Positions 1 through 9,767 of a stretch of DNA of 9,767 nt are shown here, piece by piece. The stretch's first letter is position 1. Every line of letters begins with the position of its first letter. Below the pieces are notes generated by a model. It saw only the letters and a program-made list of their open reading frames with translations, had not been told where the DNA came from and did no database searches. The stretch comes from Paraspadella gotoi. Lineage: Eukaryota; Animalia; Chaetognatha. The DNA is taken from the NCBI GenBank assembly GCA_051294375.1, contig JBJCIZ010001595.1:1-9767 (forward strand). Reading direction: 5' to 3'. A program made the position numbers and the translations under genes.

Positions 1-1
1 C

Positions 2-3000
2 GCCACCGACGGCCGCAAATGGCTCGTCGACGGCGGCGCCTTACTGTCTCTAATTCCTCCGACAGCAGCCCAGCGGGTGGCCGGACCAACAGGTCCAAAA
101 CTCCAAGCGGCCAACGGCACATCAATAAACGCCTACGGCACCGTCCGCCGCCGAGTCGTACTCGGCACCCGAGTATTTTCCTTCGATTTCCTCGTGGCAG
201 ATGTCACGCAAAGTATACTTGGGGCGGATTTCCTCGCGGAATTTTATTTGGCCCCCAATCACCGCGACGGAACGCTCATCGACCTCAGAGACTTGTCCAT
301 CATCTCGTGTGACGTTTCCAATATCACTCCACCGTCTCACGTCAATCTCATCGAAGAAAAGGACAACGCGTACTATAAACTACTAGATCAATATCCGACG
401 CTGGCAACTCCGACCTTCGAGATCAAGGAACCGAAGCACGGAGTTAAGCACCATATTCCAACTTTTGGCCGACCCTGCCAAGCGCGAGCACGCCGCCTAC
501 CGCCGGAGAAGCTCGCCGTCGCAAAAGCTGAACTGGAAAAATTGGTCGCGCTCGGCGTCGCCAAACGCGCTAAAAGTTCTTGGTCGTCTCCTCTACTATG
601 TGTCCCAAAAGCAGATGGTGGATGGAGATGTTGCGGAGACTTCCGTCGCCTCAACGCCAACACCAAGGATGATAAGTACCCTGTCAAGCTCCTCGCGGAT
701 TTTAACGCGGAGTTGGCAGGGAAAAAGGTGTTCTCAAAAATCGATCTACTAAAAGGGTATCACCAGATCCCTGTAGCAGAAGAGGACATTCCCAAAACGG
801 CGGTTATAACCCCCTTCGGACTCTTCGTCTTTCTCCGCACCCCCTTCGGCCTCAAAAACGCGGGGCAAGACTTTCAGCGGATGATGGACGAAATCCTGGG
901 GGATATACCGCACACTTACGTTTATCTGGACGACATTCTCGTCGCCAGTGCCGACCAGAAGGAGCACCTCCAAGACCTCAAAGCGGTTTTCGATTCCCTC
1001 GCCGACAACGGCCTCGTCATAAATAGGAAAAAATGCATCCTAGGTCAATCTTCCCTAGAATTTCTGGGATACTTAGTCGACGCAACAGGAGTGAAGCCTT
1101 TACCACAGAAGGTCGACGCCATCAGAGCGACAAACCCGCCAACGACTGTCAAAGAATTGCAGCGATTTCTGGGCATGGTGAATTATTACCGGCGTTTTAT
1201 ACCAAACGCCGCTCACCATGCCGCAGCGCTATACGACATCCTAGCGGGCAAGCCTAAACAGCTAAACTGGTCTGAGGCCTGCTCCAAATCTTTCGACGCC
1301 ATTAAGGAAGCGCTCGCCAACGCGGCGCTGCTTCGACACCCGCGTACCAACGCACAACTCGCGCTAACCACGGACGCCTCGGACATCGCCGTCGGCGCTG
1401 TTCTCGAACAGAGAACGCCGCAAGGATGGGAGCCGCTGGCGTTCTTCTCCGCCAAGCTCGACGAAGCACAGCGTCGATGGCCCCCATTCGATAGGGAGCT
1501 GTACGGCGCGTTTCGAGCCGTACGCCATTTCCGGCATTGGTTAGAGGGAAGAACATTCACCCTCTATACGGATCACCAGTCTTTGATCCATGCCTTGCAC
1601 AAGCGCTCTGAGCCGCAAACGACGCGCCACAACTTTCAACTCTCAGTAATATCGGAGTTCACGACAGACATCCGTCACATCCGTGGCAAAGCCAACGTGG
1701 TCGCCGACGCTTTGTCGCGGCCCAACCCACCTCCAGCCGCCTCCGTCGACCGCCCAATCTCACAGGAGAAGTCCCAAGATCTCCAGGCGACAATCAACGC
1801 CATCGGACAGGAGGGCGTAAACCTCGAAGAAATGGCGCGCCACCAGATCCTCGATAGGGACTTTCAGCGCCTATCCAACGACGCCAGAACGGGCCTCCAA
1901 TTTAGAAAAGTGACAGTAGGAGATCACGAGCTTTTCGTTGACGTCTCAAACGGCCCTGCCCGCCCCTTTGTCCCGGAATCATGGCGGAAGCGGATATTCG
2001 ACGCCGTCCACGGCCTTGGCCATCCCGGCGTTGCTCGCACACGCGAAACGATAGCCTCGAAATTCGTATGGCCTTCACTGAAAGCGGATATCACACGCTG
2101 GGCGCGAGAGTGTCTACAATGCCAGCGCGCCAAGGTGACGCGCCACATCACGCCAAATATTGGAGAATTCGAGGTGCCACCAAAGCGTTTCAACCATCTA
2201 AACGTGGATATCACTTTGATGCCCCAATCGAACGGATTTAGTTCACTCCTCACCGTGGTGGATAGGTTCTCCAGATGGCCGGCGGCCATTCCCATGAAAG
2301 ACATGTCGACCACATCTGTCGTCGACGCCATCACGCACGGATGGATTGCCCAATTCGGCATCCCAGCGGCGATCACTACGGACAGAGGCGCGCAGTTCTC
2401 GACCGCGATTTGGACACAGTTAACCCAAACATGGGGCATCAAGCATCTTCAGACCGCAGCGTACCATCCACAATCCAACGGATTGGTAGAGCGTTTCCAT
2501 CGGCGGTTGAAGGAAGCGCTAATAGCGTTAGGCGACGATCAACCCCAACGATGGTTCTGGCGGCTCCCCTCAGCGTTATTAGCGATACGTACGACGATTA
2601 AACCTGACATCGGCGCATCTCCCGCTGAATTAGTGTTCGGTGAAGGTCTCGCGGTGCCCGGCGATCTTCTGCCCCCTCCAATCGACGACGGACAACTCCA
2701 GGAGCATCGTCAGGCCCTGCGAGACAATCTTCGAGTCGAGGTGGAACGATTACAGCCCACAGAAACATCCACACATCGAGCTCCTCGCTTATATCTCCCG
2801 GACACACTCACTGATGCTACTCACGTCTTCGTCCAGCGCTCCGGCGTCAATCCTCCGCTAACGGCGCCTTACCAAGGACCCTATCGAGTCCTCAGCCGAG
2901 ACAATCTAAACTTCAAAATAGAAATCCCTGGCCGCGGAACTGAAACAGTAGCCATCGCCCGGATCAAGCCAGCGACACTATGGCGTGACGAAGAGGGAGA

Positions 3001-3487
3001 AGAACGAGCCTCTCAACCATCTCCCCCTCCGTCTCCACCTCCTCCAGGCCGGCGTCCGGGCCCACGCACCCGGCAACCTCCAGCGACGTCAAGGCGAACT
3101 CGATCCACTACTCATCGCCAGCGACAACTTCAGCAGCCAGATGAAGAGGACGAGGACGACGAGGACGATGACATCGAAATCCCCCAAACGCGCCTAAGCG
3201 CAGCGCCAAACAGATCGCAGCCTTCGACGTCACTCGAGACTCCCACGCCTACTTCCGTTCAACCTCGAGACGCCACCGAAGCGACGTCCCTCCCCTTCGG
3301 TGTCCCACCGGCGCCTCCAACGCCAGCCTCAGCGCCAGCACAAACGGAAGAGCCTCGTCATCGGCCACGCCCACCAGTCGAACGTTTCTCTCGCCCTCAG
3401 CCTACAGATTTCTCCTACAAAACGATAAACTCTAGCTCCAAACCAAATTACGATGCAGTAATACGCCATATATTGGACATAAAGTGA
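2..3487 (+). CDS. pol: Pol polyprotein (aspartic protease, reverse transcriptase, RNase H, integrase), 5'-partial
   Basis: The frame is open from nt 2, upstream of the track's start at 77. Motifs: protease WLVDGGALLS and ILGADFL; RT WRCCGDFRRLN, KIDLLKGYHQI, PFGLKNA, YLDD (923-934); RNase H TTDASD, DRELYG, LYTDHQSL, NVVADALSR; integrase H-x3-H...C-x2-C, VDRFSRWP, TDRGAQF, NGLVERFHR and GPY (2876-2884). Stop TGA at 3485-3487. Confidence 0.97.
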   Translation, partial: ATDGRKWLVDGGALLSLIPPTAAQRVAGPTGPKLQAANGTSINAYGTVRRRVVLGTRVFSFDFLVADVTQSILGADFLAEFYLAPNHRDGTLIDLRDLSIISCDVSNITPPSHVNLIEEKDNAYYKLLDQYPTLATPTFEIKEPKHGVKHHIPTFGRPCQARARRLPPEKLAVAKAELEKLVALGVAKRAKSSWSSPLLCVPKADGGWRCCGDFRRLNANTKDDKYPVKLLADFNAELAGKKVFSKIDLLKGYHQIPVAEEDIPKTAVITPFGLFVFLRTPFGLKNAGQDFQRMMDEILGDIPHTYVYLDDILVASADQKEHLQDLKAVFDSLADNGLVINRKKCILGQSSLEFLGYLVDATGVKPLPQKVDAIRATNPPTTVKELQRFLGMVNYYRRFIPNAAHHAAALYDILAGKPKQLNWSEACSKSFDAIKEALANAALLRHPRTNAQLALTTDASDIAVGAVLEQRTPQGWEPLAFFSAKLDEAQRRWPPFDRELYGAFRAVRHFRHWLEGRTFTLYTDHQSLIHALHKRSEPQTTRHNFQLSVISEFTTDIRHIRGKANVVADALSRPNPPPAASVDRPISQEKSQDLQATINAIGQEGVNLEEMARHQILDRDFQRLSNDARTGLQFRKVTVGDHELFVDVSNGPARPFVPESWRKRIFDAVHGLGHPGVARTRETIASKFVWPSLKADITRWARECLQCQRAKVTRHITPNIGEFEVPPKRFNHLNVDITLMPQSNGFSSLLTVVDRFSRWPAAIPMKDMSTTSVVDAITHGWIAQFGIPAAITTDRGAQFSTAIWTQLTQTWGIKHLQTAAYHPQSNGLVERFHRRLKEALIALGDDQPQRWFWRLPSALLAIRTTIKPDIGASPAELVFGEGLAVPGDLLPPPIDDGQLQEHRQALRDNLRVEVERLQPTETSTHRAPRLYLPDTLTDATHVFVQRSGVNPPLTAPYQGPYRVLSRDNLNFKIEIPGRGTETVAIARIKPATLWRDEEGEERASQPSPPPSPPPPGRRPGPRTRQPPATSRRTRSTTHRQRQLQQPDEEDEDDEDDDIEIPQTRLSAAPNRSQPSTSLETPTPTSVQPRDATEATSLPFGVPPAPPTPASAPAQTEEPRHRPRPPVERFSRPQPTDFSYKTINSSSKPNYDAVIRHILDIK

Positions 3488-3639
3488 GTTTAAAACCAAT
3501 TCATTTTTTTTTCTCTTCTCTCCCTTCGTTTTATTCCTGTACCATATGTATATATTAGATAAGTATTTATACCTACTTCAAATCACTATAGCTTACCTGA
3601 TCGAGCCCAAACGTTCCGCAAATCGTGATATTTCCGTCT

Positions 3640-3647
3640 GGGGGGGA
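3640..3647 (+). promoter_or_regulatory. Polypurine tract (plus-strand primer)
   Basis: GGGGGGGA directly before TGTGG, about 150 nt after the pol stop. This is the canonical position. Confidence 0.85.
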
Positions 3648-3712
3648 TGTGGGATTTGAACCCGATATAAATCCTCCACGAAGTAACGATGATTGCCGAC
3701 GGCCATAGCCGA
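3648..3712 (-). promoter_or_regulatory. Putative tRNA-like Pol III promoter unit B, antisense at the LTR 5' end
   Basis: Minus strand: A-box-like TGGCCGTCGG (3705-3696) and B-box GGTTCAAATCC (3662-3652) within the T-arm-like GGG-TTCAAAT-CCC. A-to-B spacing is 44 nt, as in unit A. Confidence 0.45.
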
Positions 3713-3854
3713 TCGATATTTTCACTTAGAAATCACTTCGATATGTTTTTAACTCGATTTATATTTAATTATAAAATAAATAAAAAGAGTGGCTCCTCAG
3801 TCTCGAACTCGGGACTCTGTATTCACTAGCAGCGCCTCAACCAATGTCGCCACT
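3648..3854 (+). repeat. LTR (5' edge well supported; 3' edge either ~3854 or ~4486)
   Basis: Starts TGTGG after the PPT; TATAAA at 3666 and 3770, AATAAA at 3775-3780; CCACT then C-TGGT at 3850-3859. With one LTR per unit the 3' edge cannot be fixed from a direct repeat. Confidence 0.6.
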
Positions 3855-3859
3855 CTGGT
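3782..3859 (-). ncRNA. Putative tRNA-derived Pol III small RNA unit A, antisense in the LTR
   Basis: Minus strand: A-box-like TGGCGACATTGG (3852-3841), perfect B-box GTTCGAGAC (3808-3800), T5 terminator (3786-3782), closing stem AGAGTGGC/GCCACTCT. It does not fold into a full cloverleaf. Confidence 0.55.
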
Positions 3860-4145
3860 ATTAATAAAATCTTTTCCGATAAGGTTTATATTAGATTGAA
3901 TCTACTTTTTATTATTTTGTTTATCTTTTGTTTTCCTACAACAAAAGAACAATTCGATTCAAACTAGATTCCTCAGCTGATCCACCTTACATTGTTTACT
4001 TCAATCCAGCTTTGAATCTTTTCTACAATTTAATTCTCTACTAAAAACCTTCGCGAAATACTAAGCTTATTAGTAGTCTCAACAATTCGTTCATTAATTA
4101 TTATAATTGCTCATTGATTAAATGATTGGATTTACTGTGATTTTA

Positions 4146-4197
4146 CATATAGATATTCTCATTGCTTGAAGGCAAAAGCAGTAGGAATATCTATATG
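4146..4197. other. Long hairpin (~22-bp stem, 8-nt loop) in the AT-rich leader
   Basis: CATATAGATATTC (4146-4158) pairs perfectly with GAATATCTATATG (4185-4197). The stem continues through ATTGCTT/AAGCAGT around the loop GAAGGCAA. Confidence 0.75.
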
Positions 4198-4487
4198 CTT
4201 TGATTATTTTATTAAGGTCCTTCTTTTACAAGTTAACCAAATAAGTTGGTTATAATGAACTTTTATCTTCAAGTCTAAGAACTACTCTAAAAATAAGAAT
4301 TCGATCGAAACTAATCTCGCCATATCTCAACGCCACGTGCGCCAATCTTCACGCCACTTTACTACGACCTTCTCGGAACCATCGCGGACCCCTTCCGCTC
4401 ATCAAACCGTTCCTCCAAGTCTCCAGTGGCCCGTCAACGCACATCTCAAGTGTGGCGTCAAAGTGAGTTTAATTTCGACATCTACAT

Positions 4488-4501
4488 TGGTAATCCCGAC
4501 G
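4488..4501 (+). promoter_or_regulatory. Candidate primer-binding site, tRNA-Trp-like
   Basis: TGGTAATCCCGACG matches 12/14 of the usual animal tRNA-Trp PBS TGGTGACCCCGACG (recalled, not searched). It follows an LTR-end-like TCTACA-T and lies ~50 nt before the first gag ATG. Confidence 0.45.
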
Positions 4502-4539
4502 ACGAACCAATCCAACCTCTCCCCACGCCAAATCCATCG

Positions 4540-5673
4540 ATGAGCGAATCCAGGGAGACGCGCCAAACTGCCCGTCTACGACAACAAACTGCTCTTACGG
4601 TCCCTATAGGCGCCGGCAGAGGCCGTATCTCCCGAGAAACTTCACCCAACAATACTAGCAACCCAAGAGGCGCCACTCCTCCTGTATTCCCGCCAGCGTC
4701 CCCGGGGAGGTTTTTCGCCTTCCCACCTACGTCTCCAAACATCAGAGCTTCGAACTACGCCAACGGCAACATGGCGACCGCGACTGGCGCTGACGAGACT
4801 GAGACTCTCCGCTCAGCCTTGGCGGCGGCCTTAAAGGCACTCGAGAAAAAGAAGAAGCCAGAGTTACCAGCTTTTGACTCTAAGAACATAGAGATCTGGA
4901 TTCGTAGAGTTGAAGCGGCCTATATACGCGCCAACATAAGGGAGGCAAGCGAAAAATTCGCACACTTGGAAGCAAAGATCAATGTGGATGTAAATCCACG
5001 CATTAATGCCTTTCTCTACGGAGACCCAACAGAGGACAATTGGACAGCCTTTATCTCCTACCTGCGTAAGGAGTACGGGAAAACTCCGCGCCAACAGGCA
5101 GCGATACTCCTCGACGGCTTCACCAGAGACGGCTTGAAACCGTCCCAGCACCTCGCCCGCCTCGAGGAGAAGATAAAGGCAGTAACGATAGATGATTTAA
5201 AGAAAGAGACCATCATCAGAGGACTGCCCATCGAAGTAAGGCGTTCAATCGAAGATAAGGCAGACGACTGGACGGCCGCCCAACTCGCCGAGGCGGCGGA
5301 CAAATTTTTCGACTCAGACGGCCGGCCAACGCTCGTGGCACCAACCGCGACGATCAGCGCCGCCACACCGGAAAGACCCGCCGAAACCCCGGCGACAGAC
5401 TCAGAGGAAGAGAACGACGCCGGCGTCAATGCAGTACAGGGACAGAGGCGCGACCGGAACCGCCCACAAAGCAACGCATGGCGTCAAAACGCAGCAAGCA
5501 GTTCGTCGACGAATGATCGCCCGCCCAACGCGCGACTAAAACAAGTCTGTAGATGGCATCTAAAATTCGGCGACGCCGCCTTTCGCTGCGAGCGTGGCTG
5601 CGCCCGTAAAGGAGAACGTCGCGAACGCAAAGACACAGCTTCGGGAAATGGCGGCGCGGGCCAGCGCAGGTGA
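4540..5673 (+). CDS. gag: Gag with CHCC nucleocapsid motif
   Basis: ORF open from GTG 4426; first ATG at 4540, alternative ATG at 4771 in strong context (AACATGG). Capsid-like LPAFDSKNIEIWIRRVEAAY and KPSQHL; CRWHLKFGDAAFRCERGC at 5548-5601; directly upstream of the protease. Confidence 0.9.
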   Translation: MSESRETRQTARLRQQTALTVPIGAGRGRISRETSPNNTSNPRGATPPVFPPASPGRFFAFPPTSPNIRASNYANGNMATATGADETETLRSALAAALKALEKKKKPELPAFDSKNIEIWIRRVEAAYIRANIREASEKFAHLEAKINVDVNPRINAFLYGDPTEDNWTAFISYLRKEYGKTPRQQAAILLDGFTRDGLKPSQHLARLEEKIKAVTIDDLKKETIIRGLPIEVRRSIEDKADDWTAAQLAEAADKFFDSDGRPTLVAPTATISAATPERPAETPATDSEEENDAGVNAVQGQRRDRNRPQSNAWRQNAASSSSTNDRPPNARLKQVCRWHLKFGDAAFRCERGCARKGERRERKDTASGNGGAGQRR

Positions 5674-5690
5674 ACGCTGTGCCCCGCGCC
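5643..5690 (+). promoter_or_regulatory. -1 programmed ribosomal frameshift signal, gag to pol
   Basis: Slippery heptamer G GGA AAT (5643-5649) in the gag frame, then a GC hairpin GGCGCGGG/CCCGCGCC (5653-5660/5683-5690) with inner CAGCG/CGCTG. Pol is in the -1 frame. Confidence 0.8.
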
Positions 5691-5767
5691 AACTCCGATT
5701 CACCCGATAATTTTCTGCTACACGTCGAGGACGCCACCGACGGCCGCAAATGGCTCGTCGACGGCGG
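5670..5767 (+). CDS. pol: Pol N-terminus up to the protease active site, cut at the inversion junction
   Basis: Reads VNAVPRANSDSPDNFLLHVEDATDGRKWLVDG(G). The last 36 nt equal window 1..36 in the pol frame. Confidence 0.9.
5732..5767 (+). repeat. 36-bp direct repeat of positions 1..36
   Basis: CGCCACCGACGGCCGCAAATGGCTCGTCGACGGCGG is identical at both sites. Confidence 0.98.
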
Positions 5768-5957
5768 TAGTAGAGAATTAAATGTAGAAAAGATTCAAAG
5801 CTGGATTGAAGTAAACAATGTAAGGTGGCATCAGCTGAGGAATCTAGTTTGAATCGAATTGTTCTTTTGTTGTAGGAAAACAAAAGATAAACAAAATAAT
5901 AAAAAGTAGATTCAATCTAATATAAACCTTATCGGAAAAGATTTTATTAATTACCAG

Positions 5958-6163
5958 AGTGGCGACATTGGTTGAGGCGCTGCTAGTGAATACAGAGTCC
6001 CGAGTTCGAGACTGAGGAGCCACTCTTTTTATTTATTTTATAATTAAATATAAATCGAGTTAAAAACATATCGAAGTGATTTCTAAGTGAAAATATCGAT
6101 CGGCTATGGCCGTCGGCAATCATCGTTACTTCGTGGAGGATTTATATCGGGTTCAAATCCACA
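5958..6163 (-). repeat. LTR, second copy (PPT at 6164-6171)
   Basis: Reverse complement of 3648..3854 with one G fewer. A/B boxes read on + at 5960/6004 and 6107/6151. Confidence 0.6.
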
Positions 6164-6324
6164 TCCCCCCCAGACGGAAATATCACGATTTGCGGAACGT
6201 TTGGGCTCGATCAGGTAAGCTATAGTGATTTGAAGTAGGTATAAATACTTATCTATATATACATATGGTACAGGAATAAAACGAAGGGAGAGAAGAGAAA
6301 AAAAAAAATGAATTGGTTTTAAAC

Positions 6325-9300
6325 TCACTTTATGTCCAATATATGGCGTATTACTGATCGTAATTTGGTTTGGAGCTAGAGTTTATCGTTTTGTAGGAGA
6401 AATCTGTAGGCTGAGGGCGAGAGAAACGTTCGACTGGTGGGCGTGGGCCGATACGAGGCTCTTCCGTTTGTGCTGGCGCTGAGGCTGGCGTTGGAGGCGC
6501 CGGTGGGACACCGAAGGGGAGGGACGTCGCTTCGGTGGCGTCTCGAGGTTGAACGGAAGTAGGCGTGGGAGTCTCGAGTGACGTCGAAGGCTGCGATCTG
6601 TTGGCGCTGCGCTTAGGCGCGTTTGGGGGATTTCGATGTCATCGTCCTCGTCGTCCTCGTCCTCTTCATCTGGCTGCTGAAGTTGTCGCTGGCGATGAGT
6701 AGTGGATCGAGTTCGCTTGACGTCGCTGGAGGTTGCCGGGTGCGTGGGCCCGGACGCCGGCCTGGAGGAGGTGGAGACGGAGGGGGAGATGGTTGAGAGG
6801 CTCGTTCTTCTCCCTTTCGTCACGCCATAGTGTCGCTGGCTTGATTCCGGGCGATGGCTACTGTTCAGTTCCGCGGCCAGGGATTTCTATTTTAAGTTTA
6901 GATTGTCTCGGCTGAGGACTCGATAGGGTCCTTGGTAAGGCGCCGTTAGCGGAGGATTGACGCCCGGAGCGCTGGACGAAGACGTGAGTAGCATCAGTGA
7001 GTGTGTCCGGGAGATATAAGCGAGGAGCTCGATGTGTGGATGTTTCTGTGGGCTGTAATCGTTCCACCTCGACTCGAAGATGTCTCGCAGGGCCTGACGA
7101 TGCTCCTGGAGTTGTCCGTCGTCGATTGGAGGGGGCAGAAGATCGCCGGGCACCGCGAGACCTTCACCGAACACTAATTCAGCGGGAGATGCGCCGATGT
7201 CAGGTTTATCGTCGTACGTATCGCTAATAACGCTGAGGGGAGCCGCCAGAACCATCGTTGGGGTTGATCGTCGCCTAACGCTATAGCGCTTCCTTCAACC
7301 GCCGATGGAAACGCTCTACCAATCCGTTGGATTGTGGATGGTACGCTGCGGTCTGAAGATGCTTGATGCCCCATGTTTGGGTTAACTGTGTCCAAATCGC
7401 GGTCGAGAACTGCGCGCCTCTGTCCGTAGTGATCGCCGCTGGGATGCCGAATTGGGCAATCCATCCGTGCGTGATGGCGTCGACGACAGATGTGGTCGAC
7501 ATGTCTTTCATGGGAATGGCCGCCGGCCATCTGGAGAACCTATCCACCACGGTGAGGAGTGAACTAAATCCGTTCGATTGGGGCATCAAAGTGATATCCA
7601 CGTTTAGATGGTTGAAACGCTTTGGTGGCACCTCGAATTCTCCAATATTTGGCGTGATGTGGCGCGTCACCTTGGCGCGCTGGCATTGTAGACACTCTCG
7701 CGCCCAGCGTGTGATATCCGCTTTCAGTGAAGGCCATACGAATTTCGAGGCTATCGTTTCGCGTGTGCGAGCAACGCCGGGATGGCCAAGGCCGTGGACG
7801 GCGTCGAATATCCGCTTCGCCATGATTCCGGGACAAAGGGGCGGGCAGGGCCGTTGAGACGTCAACGAAAAGCTCGTGATCTCCTACTGTCACTTTTCTA
7901 AATTGGAGGCCCGTTCTGGCGTCGTTGGATAGGCGCTGAAAGTCCCTATCGAGGATCTGGTGGCGCGCCATTTCTTCGAGGTTTACGCCCTCCTGTCCGA
8001 TGGCGTTGATTGTCGCCTGGAGATCTTGGGACTTCTCCTGTGAGATTGGGCGGTCGACGGTAGGCGGCTGGAGGTGGGTTGGGCCGCGACAAAGCGTCGG
8101 CGACCAACGTTGGCTTTGCCACGGATGTGACGGATGTCTGTCGTGAACTCCGATATTACTGAGAGTTGAAAGTTGTGGCGCGTCGTTTGCGGCTCAGAGC
8201 GCTTGTGCAAGGCATGGATCAAAGACTGGTGATCCGTATAGAGGGTGAATGTTCTTCCCTCTAACCAATGCCGGAAATGGCGTACGGCTCGAAACGCGCC
8301 GTACAGCTCCCTATCGAATGGGGGCCATCGACGCTGTGCTTCGTCGAGCTTGGCGGAGAAGAACGCCAGCGGCTCCCATCCTTGCGGCGTTCTCTGTTCG
8401 AGAACAGCGCCGACGGCGATGTCCGAGGCGTCCGTGGTTAGCGCGAGTTGTGCGTTGGTACGCGGGTGTCGAAGCAGCGCCGCGTTGGCAGAGCGCTTCC
8501 TTAATGGCGTCGAAAGATTTGGAGCAGGCCTCAGACCAGTTTAGCTGTTTAGGCTTGCCCGCTAGGATGTCGTATAGCGCTGCGGCATGGTGAGCGGCGT
8601 TTGGTATAAAACGCCGGTAATAATTCACCATGCCCAGAAATCGCTGCAATTCTTTGACAGTCGTTGGCGGGTTTGTCGCTCTGATGGCGTCGACCTTCTG
8701 TGGTAAAGGCTTCACTCCTGTTGCGTCGACTAAGTATCCCAGAAATTCTAGGGAAGATTGACCTAGGATGCATTTTTTCCTATTTATGACGAGGCCGTTG
8801 TCGCGAGGGAATCGAAAACCGCTTTGAGGTCTTGGAGGTGCTCCTTCTGGTCGGCACTGGCGACGAGAATGTCGTCCAGATAAACGTAAGTGTGCGGTAT
8901 ATCCCCCAGGATTTCGTCCATCATCCGCTGAAAGTCTTGCCCCGCGTTTTTGAGGCCGAAGGGGGTGCGGAGAAAGACGAAGAGTCCGAAGGGGGTTATA
9001 ACCGCCGTTTTGGGAATGTCCTCTTCTGCTACAGGGATCTGGTGATACCCTTTTAGTAGATCGATTTTTGAGAACACCTTTTTCCCTGCCAACTCCGCGT
9101 TAAAATCCGCGAGGAGCTTGACAGGGTACTTATCATCCTTGGTGTTGGCGTTGAGGCGACGGAAGTCTCCGCAACATCTCCATCCACCATCTGCTTTTGG
9201 GACACATAGTAGAGGAGACGACCAAGAACTTTTAGCGCGTTTGGCGACGCCGAGCGCGACCAATTTTTCCAGTTCAGCTTTTGCGACGGCGAGCTTCTCC

Positions 9301-9767
9301 GGCGGTAGGCGGCGTGCTCGCGCTTGGCAGGGTCGGCCAAAAGTTGGAATATGGTGCTTAACTCCGTGCTTCGGTTCTTGATCTCGAAGGTCGGAGTTGC
9401 CAGCGTCGGATATTGATCTAGTAGTTTATAGTACGCGTTGTCCTTTTCTTCGATGAGATTGACGTGAGACGGTGGAGTGATATTGGAAACGTCACACGAG
9501 ATGATGGACAAGTCTCTGAGGTCGATGAGCGTTCCGTCGCGGTGATTGGGGGCCAAATAAAATTCCGCGAGGAAATCCGCCCCAAGTATACTTTGCGTGA
9601 CATCTGCCACGAGGAAATCGAAGGAAAATACTCGGGTGCCGAGTACGACTCGGCGGCGGACGGTGCCGTAGGCGTTTATTGATGTGCCGTTGGCCGCTTG
9701 GAGTTTTGGACCTGTTGGTCCGGCCACCCGCTGGGCTGCTGTCGGAGGAATTAGAGACAGTAAGGCG
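6325..9767 (-). pseudogene. pol: Second pol copy broken by single-base indels (probably sequencing errors)
   Basis: Minus-strand ORF fragments (9053-9727, 8784-9263, 8311-8715, 7281-7865 and others) reproduce pieces of the 2..3487 protein and change frame at indels. Confidence 0.8.

Follow-up and report, generated by a model that had tools for sequence, protein, structure and literature searches.

Predicted antisense Pol III mini-genes in a CsRn1-like Ty3/gypsy retrotransposon of the chaetognath Paraspadella gotoi and in its relatives

The window analysed here, a stretch of 9,767 nucleotides from Paraspadella gotoi, opens with one circularly permuted LTR retrotransposon that takes up bases 1-5767. 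Its bases 1-36 are identical to 5732-5767 (a 36-nt circular overlap); it has a single LTR, no flanking host DNA and a unit length of ~5.7 kb. The features of the locus are collected in Table 1. Pol starts within 5610-5767, where it overlaps gag in the -1 frame, and is carried by way of the circular overlap into its main part at the other end of the element. The junction of the polypurine tract (PPT) with the initial TGT of the LTR is common to the window and to three related metagenome loci that are described below (L001, L004 and L008). DNA that is nearly identical to the element turns up in seven sequencing runs, which come from one organism and two studies.

Table 1. Features of the window, with the grounds on which each was assigned
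Feature	Position	Strand	Basis and remarks
pol ORF	2..3487	+	open frame with PR, RT, RNase H and a GPY-bearing integrase
Polypurine tract	3640..3647	+	sequence; equal G-run before TGT in relatives
LTR, single	3648..4486	+	839 nt, TGT 3648 to ACA 4486; between G-rich PPT and PBS
Unit B	3648..3712	-	both boxes at the LTR tip; own terminator absent
Unit A, predicted Pol III type-2 mini-gene, ~77 nt	3782..3859	-	boxes, T5, terminal stem, strict A + B + T4 match
Primer-binding site (PBS), tRNA-Trp-like	4488..4501	+	two differences from the published CsRn1-clade PBS
gag ORF	4540..5673	+	377 aa; CX2HX9CX3C (CHCC) motif at the Gag C terminus
Fold-back duplicate of 37-4043	5768..9767	-	no substitution and 26 gap openings in 4017 columns; frameshifted ORFs

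The rest of the window folds back on the element, and a second 'copy' of units A and B lies inside that part, at ~5950-6165. Because the fold-back differs from the first part by indels only, with not a single substitution, the two copies are one sequence, and 5768-9767 is most likely an artefact of read or assembly that repeats one copy, not an independent insertion. The presence of the units in both copies, to which the original prediction had appealed, is therefore not evidence, and the second copy was rejected as a measure of conservation. The turn-round junction at 5767/5768, past which 4 kb are repeated with indel-only errors, affects other findings in 5768-9767 as well.

The order of the Pfam domains (PR-RT-RH-IN) is that of the CsRn1 clade, GPY is present in the translation, the best PDB match of the RT is the Ty3 RT, and the CHCC motif of Gag is kept in 54 of 57 Gag homologues. 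The clade is defined by that Gag motif, a Trp PBS and GPY (PMC2582038, PMC3630058); the window element resembles it in its CHCC Gag, GPY and -1 gag-pol overlap, and also in that neither env nor a chromodomain was seen in its Pfam domain order and translation. Motifs and domain order together support the view, already taken in the original prediction, that this Ty3/gypsy element is CsRn1-like; it is intact and autonomous. Its tRNA-Trp-like PBS has mismatches with the published one of the clade (2 of the 11 positions at 4488-4498 differ; PMC2582038), and its protease has DGG instead of D(T/S)G. Its LTR of 839 nt, like that of L001 (~1075 nt), is long beside the 149-372 nt that separate PPT from PBS in six outgroup loci. 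Comparing the PBS regions of the window (4488-4520) and of L001 (2843-2875), one sees TGG and CCCGAC kept and the stretch between them altered, so as to resemble neither the canonical Trp PBS nor its counterpart in the other element; the canonical TGGTGACCC opens this site in five outgroup loci. The DGG of the protease active site (window 23-34 / 5754-5767) recurs in 68 of the 120 homologues listed. A short terminal motif of pol (3400-3484; FS-Y/R...P-D/N-V/I/Y...A...I...H-L-like), lying behind a long low-complexity tail, is conserved within the in-group of relatives.

In a type-2 promoter for RNA polymerase III (Pol III), TFIIIC binds the A and B boxes and loads TFIIIB upstream. A generic A/B-box rule places two such pairs of boxes on the minus strand of the LTR. 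The A box of unit A, TGGCGACATTGG (3852-3841), matches the consensus at 8 of 9 positions and its B box, GTTCGAGAC (3808-3800), at 7 of 9; a T5 terminator (3786-3782) follows 13 nt after the B box, and the predicted RNA is 77 nt long. An 8-bp terminal stem (3856-3849 / 3793-3786), which the original prediction had missed together with the T5, is the sole helix in the centroid structure of this RNA, whose overall fold is not unusual (z -1.4). In unit B, the A box TGGCCGTCGG (3705-3696) matches at 6 of 9 positions and the B box GTTCAAATC (3661-3653), which constitutes nucleotides 6-14 of the LTR, at all 9. The unit overlaps the end of the LTR as well as TATAAAT (3666-3672), a TATA-like word of the plus strand, and is without a T4 for 157 nt, the first being found at 3495-3492; read as far as that from a 3' LTR, it would give rise to a 221-nt RNA antisense to the PPT and the 3' UTR. 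From A-box start to B-box start is 44 nt in each unit, and the units are 147 nt apart. Dinucleotide shuffling of the 839-nt LTR yields two units by the generic rule in none of 2000 cases (one unit in 26 of 2000), and shuffling of the whole 5767-nt element does so in 11 of 300. The minus-strand boxes and the 44-nt spacing in both units, as first described, are thus confirmed from the sequence and unlikely to be due to chance; the accompanying statement that the LTR is 'built from' the two units was too sweeping, for they fill its first 210 nt.

The units had also been called tRNA-like. That is apt as regards their boxes, their spacing and a short T-arm hairpin (seen in unit B and in the cassettes of relatives), and goes too far as regards everything else: ARAGORN detects no tRNA gene in the window or in any of the 30 metagenome loci (30/30), and no match to the Rfam tRNA covariance model appears in window or loci up to E 10. 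With no ARAGORN match and no meaningful Rfam match, a functional tRNA, a ribozyme or a known ncRNA was rejected. A self-encoded primer of reverse transcription was likewise rejected, pairing with the PBS being no better than in shuffles (457/500 and 146/500 as good; 84/500 for L001); the PBS core occurs once. Nor is the B box credible as a palindromic dimerisation signal: the A box and the T-run fix the strand, and in the window the B boxes are not palindromic. Several B boxes of the relatives are near-palindromes.

Relatives of the element are numerous. Of 7988 candidates that were scored, 1857 are homologues of the integrase (identity is 59-67% among the 120 listed); no relatives were found in viral contigs, and none in prokaryote genomes. 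A metagenome scan yielded 30 loci, of which 17 belong to the in-group (58-64% integrase identity) and 13 to the outgroup (32-46%); the integrase tree was built by a quick method on unnamed loci, and its placement of L009 and L028 carries no meaning, both rows having been translated in a wrong frame. Seven of the in-group loci stop inside pol and one, L007, ends a short way past the integrase core, which leaves them uninformative on cassettes; nine (60-64% integrase identity) extend past the conserved C terminus of pol. In seven of these nine (L001, L002, L004, L005, L013, L024 and L025) an A box is followed, on the antisense strand, by a B box at a distance of 43-44 nt; six of the seven carriers come from one metagenome assembly. 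L005 has two cassettes, and the 43-44-nt spacing holds for all eight. In seven cassettes T4 starts exactly 16 nt past the B box, despite differing trailers (the distance is 27 nt in L001), and the predicted transcript has a fixed length of 79-80 nt. As for the two other loci, L015 has a degenerate B box, followed at 16 nt by a T5, and its contig ends short of the place where an A box would lie, and L008 has no cassette in ~400 nt of LTR. Tandem units exist in the window, L005 and L001, where the second is degenerate (62-nt spacing, no terminator). Six of the nine cassettes listed (L002, L004, the first of L005, L013, L024 and L025), and the cut one of L015 in addition, lie at the end of pol or in the 3' UTR; those of the window and of L001 and the second of L005 lie within the LTR.

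A strict A + B + T4 pattern, defined after the cassettes had been seen, has eight matches in 18 in-group sequences (window included), all on the minus strand and none on the plus strand, and no match in the 13 outgroup loci; the corresponding shuffle means are 0.11 and 0.15. The six outgroup loci with a whole short LTR contain no cassette. A leave-group-out, box-only matrix gives the best cassette in each of seven relatives 21-32 bits, as high as in none of 100 shuffles each. The matrix trained on relatives, when applied to the window, gives unit B 8.7 bits, just below a match inside pol, and leaves unit A outside the top two; the top score in the window is reached by 4 of 100 shuffles. A whole-cassette profile made from eight cassettes of the relatives aligns with the window units in fragments only (E 1.4 and 2.9). 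Because profile and matrix fail to recover them, the window units are best regarded as sharing a layout with the relatives' cassettes, their homology not being demonstrable.

That failure speaks for an entirely different account of the window units, according to which one or both are conserved for reasons that reside in the plus strand (an integrase attachment end, a TATA box, a poly(A) signal or an RNA hairpin) and merely resemble Pol III boxes. The location of unit B is also in keeping with it, the B box occupying the LTR tip next to TATAAAT, as is the T-run of unit A, which is the tail of an A-rich stretch and adjoins a plus-strand AATAAA. We nonetheless regard this account as very improbable: two equally spaced units are absent from all 2000 LTR shuffles, other in-group LTRs do not start with a B box, no A-box variant occurs among the best 40 of 79 host differences considered below, and the relatives display an equal layout away from their LTR ends. 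Conservation of units A and B may come in part from these other causes (LTR tip, TATA-like word, AATAAA); the LTR tip, which unit B overlaps, has such other reasons to be conserved.

How far the relatives have diverged can be gauged at fourfold-degenerate sites of the integrase, where identity comes to 25-46% for all but one of the 28 pairs of carriers (25-31% for the window against the carriers, 28-46% among carriers, and 63% for the close pair L013/L024); synonymous sites between carriers are, by this measure, near saturation. Boxes, spacing, terminators and the bias to one strand are kept past that point. When the six 3'-UTR cassettes are compared between subfamilies, the A box is 75%, the B box 90% and T4 100% identical, as against 43% for the middle and 30-33% for trailer and flanks. 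Conservation of boxes and spacing in diverged relatives, the first check that had been suggested, is accordingly borne out: antisense boxes, the 43-44-nt distance and the terminator have been kept where flanks and synonymous sites have drifted.

Variation within the host was examined in two sets of 35 and 33 contigs of related families covering 3625-3905, chosen for likeness, in which summed depth peaks at 3645-3674 and 3755-3814. The best 40 of 79 differences by support affect 38 positions, 2 of which fall within the 50 box and terminator positions, where 8.6 would be expected (P=0.002), and both shift the sequence towards the consensus. Among the same best 40 of 79, the single variant listed in the stem of unit A retains a G-U pair, and there is none at A-box positions, which few of the contigs span. 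This pattern backs selection on the boxes, as supporting and not as decisive evidence. Recruitment of TFIIIC and Pol III is a reasonable expectation because diverged relatives keep boxes, spacing and terminator and because host variants lie mostly outside the boxes: we consider TFIIIC binding and Pol III transcription quite probable for unit A and the relatives' cassettes, and slightly more probable than improbable for unit B.

The cassettes could conceivably be passengers, that is, relics of captured tRNA genes or SINE heads that bring no benefit and are tolerated only in the antisense orientation. LTRs with tRNA-like pieces are 'not a few' in Repbase (Kojima 2024, PMC10886601), there is no cloverleaf, and degenerate cases occur (the second unit of L001 with its wide spacing, L008, L015 and the terminator-less unit B). 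Such an explanation is improbable, and is largely contradicted already: six cassettes at the same site by the end of pol keep boxes, spacing and terminator distance amid diverged surroundings and a diverged middle, the host variants move towards the consensus, and no SINE body or tail lies downstream.

What we favour, as an evenly balanced judgement, is that the cassettes are selected antisense Pol III mini-genes and probable tDNA mimics that protect the element in cis from silencing. tDNAs and TFIIIC sites act as chromatin barriers. TFIIIC would bind the A and B boxes of a cassette and load TFIIIB upstream, and Pol III would make 77-90-nt non-tRNA RNAs antisense to the element. As a mimic of a tRNA gene, the cassette would hold TFIIIC/TFIIIB on the element and keep its 3' end and the promoter side of the LTR open; its own terminator would keep antisense transcription short, and the antisense orientation would keep a tRNA-like fold out of genomic RNA. 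A captured tRNA gene or SINE head may have been the origin. The cis role, taken by itself, we place at or somewhat under an even chance; we prefer it because conservation between subfamilies extends to the DNA signals and the length and not to the middle of the RNA or its fold. A barrier 'at each insertion edge', as originally proposed, does not agree with the anatomy: in an LTR of 839 nt the units occupy the 5' tip and so face host DNA at the left edge only, and six of nine relative cassettes are not in the LTR at all, their position at the pol end or in the 3' UTR fitting a barrier to flanking chromatin poorly. Against the favoured reading also stand the lack of a tRNA fold, the cassette-less L008, the origin of most carriers in one assembly and the terminator-less unit B at the LTR tip. 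The feature is real and better supported than at first reading, with its anatomy corrected and its function a prediction.

The cassettes may instead be real Pol III genes whose RNA is the effector, regulating the 3' UTR/U3 of the element itself in antisense, serving as a precursor of small RNAs of the foamy-virus type, or acting as a VA-RNA-like decoy for the host's small-RNA machinery. The fixed transcript length in seven cassettes, the terminal stem of unit A ending in U's and the tandem copies in the window, L001 and L005 are consistent with this, and an RNA would work equally well from the 3' UTR or the LTR. Within the L004 subfamily, moreover, the cassette middle is 70% identical, compared with 38-63% for synonymous sites, which hints that the RNA itself matters. 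Between subfamilies, middle and trailer are barely conserved; the relatives have no common fold past the short T-arm hairpin (covariation term +0.42; a two-sided change in 1 of 7 pairs); and a pre-miRNA hairpin ending at the terminator was not found, unit A having its 8-bp stem only and the relatives sharing no long hairpin. We judge an RNA effector to be on the unlikely side. Its most far-reaching version, a clade-wide family of short Pol III RNAs, present in one to several copies per autonomous gypsy element of marine animals, that suppress or titrate host silencing, seems doubtful; if they did so, these RNAs would resemble adenovirus VA RNAs and retroviral Pol III miRNA cassettes.

Ty3-type integration targets Pol III genes, and this established preference raises the thought that Ty3-like elements integrating at Pol III start sites find in the cassettes a landing pad or a decoy. 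We give it hardly any credence: no insertion or joint just upstream of either unit was seen among the host-contig matches listed, nor in any relative.

Several known systems invite comparison. Among them is Helenus / TRIMp3; Helenus elements are non-autonomous TRIMs of 311-1263 bp (animal members depend on Gypsy elements) with boxes that have been proposed to drive the element's own transcript (Kojima 2024, PMC10886601). Like them, the window element (units A and B) and its relatives L001 and L005 have tRNA-type A and B boxes inside the LTR, conserved in spite of the loss of the tRNA fold; unlike them, the window element is autonomous, ~5.7 kb long, with open gag and pol, and the cassettes point away from the genomic RNA, mostly end in a T-run that belongs to them, and are found both in the LTR and in the 3' UTR. 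That study analysed only TRIMs, and the word 'antisense' is absent from its text. Cassandra, a non-autonomous, self-transcribing plant element, has a conserved Pol III promoter and terminator in its LTRs (PMC10886601), as is predicted for the window element in its own; Cassandra's promoter is 5S-derived and of type 1, in contrast to the type-2, antisense boxes of an autonomous animal gypsy element. The LTR of simian foamy virus contains clustered units, made up of an A box, a B box and a terminator, that encode pri-miRNA hairpins, lie in a region also transcribed into genomic RNA and have been tested with box and terminator mutants (PMC3993851). The likeness is in the clustering of Pol III units in the LTR of an autonomous retroelement; the window units differ in having no long hairpin, in their tRNA-gene spacing and in being antisense. 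In BLV, too, several independent compact Pol III units are located in the 3' part of a retroelement, but in its miRNA cluster a terminator separates the A box from the B box, and a pre-miRNA is made (PMC4267658), whereas the window has the tRNA-gene order, in which the terminator comes after both boxes. Pol III cassettes are not mentioned for the CsRn1 clade in the available text of PMC2582038 and PMC3630058. No description of autonomous gypsy elements with Pol III cassettes that are antisense and self-terminating was found in the open literature; the supplements of PMC10886601, Repbase reports and subscription papers may be relevant to how new these cassettes are.

Among LTR elements, Pol III promoters have so far been described in tiny non-autonomous elements, where they drive the element, and in two groups of retroviruses, where they make miRNAs. 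The cassettes, if they are what we suppose, would represent a third use, as a portable chromatin barrier of the tRNA-gene type or as an element-encoded small RNA, and the host genome would receive TFIIIC sites with every solo LTR. One B box and one T-run offer a concrete, mutable target for the question of how animal LTR elements escape silencing.

Three further observations on the element deserve recording. A strong 22-bp hairpin is located in the LTR at 4146-4197 (z -5.8; reached by none of 200 shuffles); the region 4146-4228, chiefly ~4185-4218, is common to many other contigs with different flanks, and its summed depth is 50-400 times that of the element body, so that it is either a core that many LTR families have conserved or some other repeat. 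Telomere-type CCCTAA repeats lie immediately 5' of LTR base 3648 in two host contigs, and L008 (2006-2100) terminates in a CCCTAA repeat too, neighbours that suggest insertion at telomeric repeats as a possibility; a repeat of six bases also speaks against a host that is a typical arthropod. Finally, a 14-nt motif of the 3' UTR (3603..3616, plus strand) is shared with L004 (2177), L013 (1557), L024 (1301) and L025 (1310), and has been kept between the window and these four relatives though synonymous sites are near saturation; it is possibly a packaging or RNA-processing signal.
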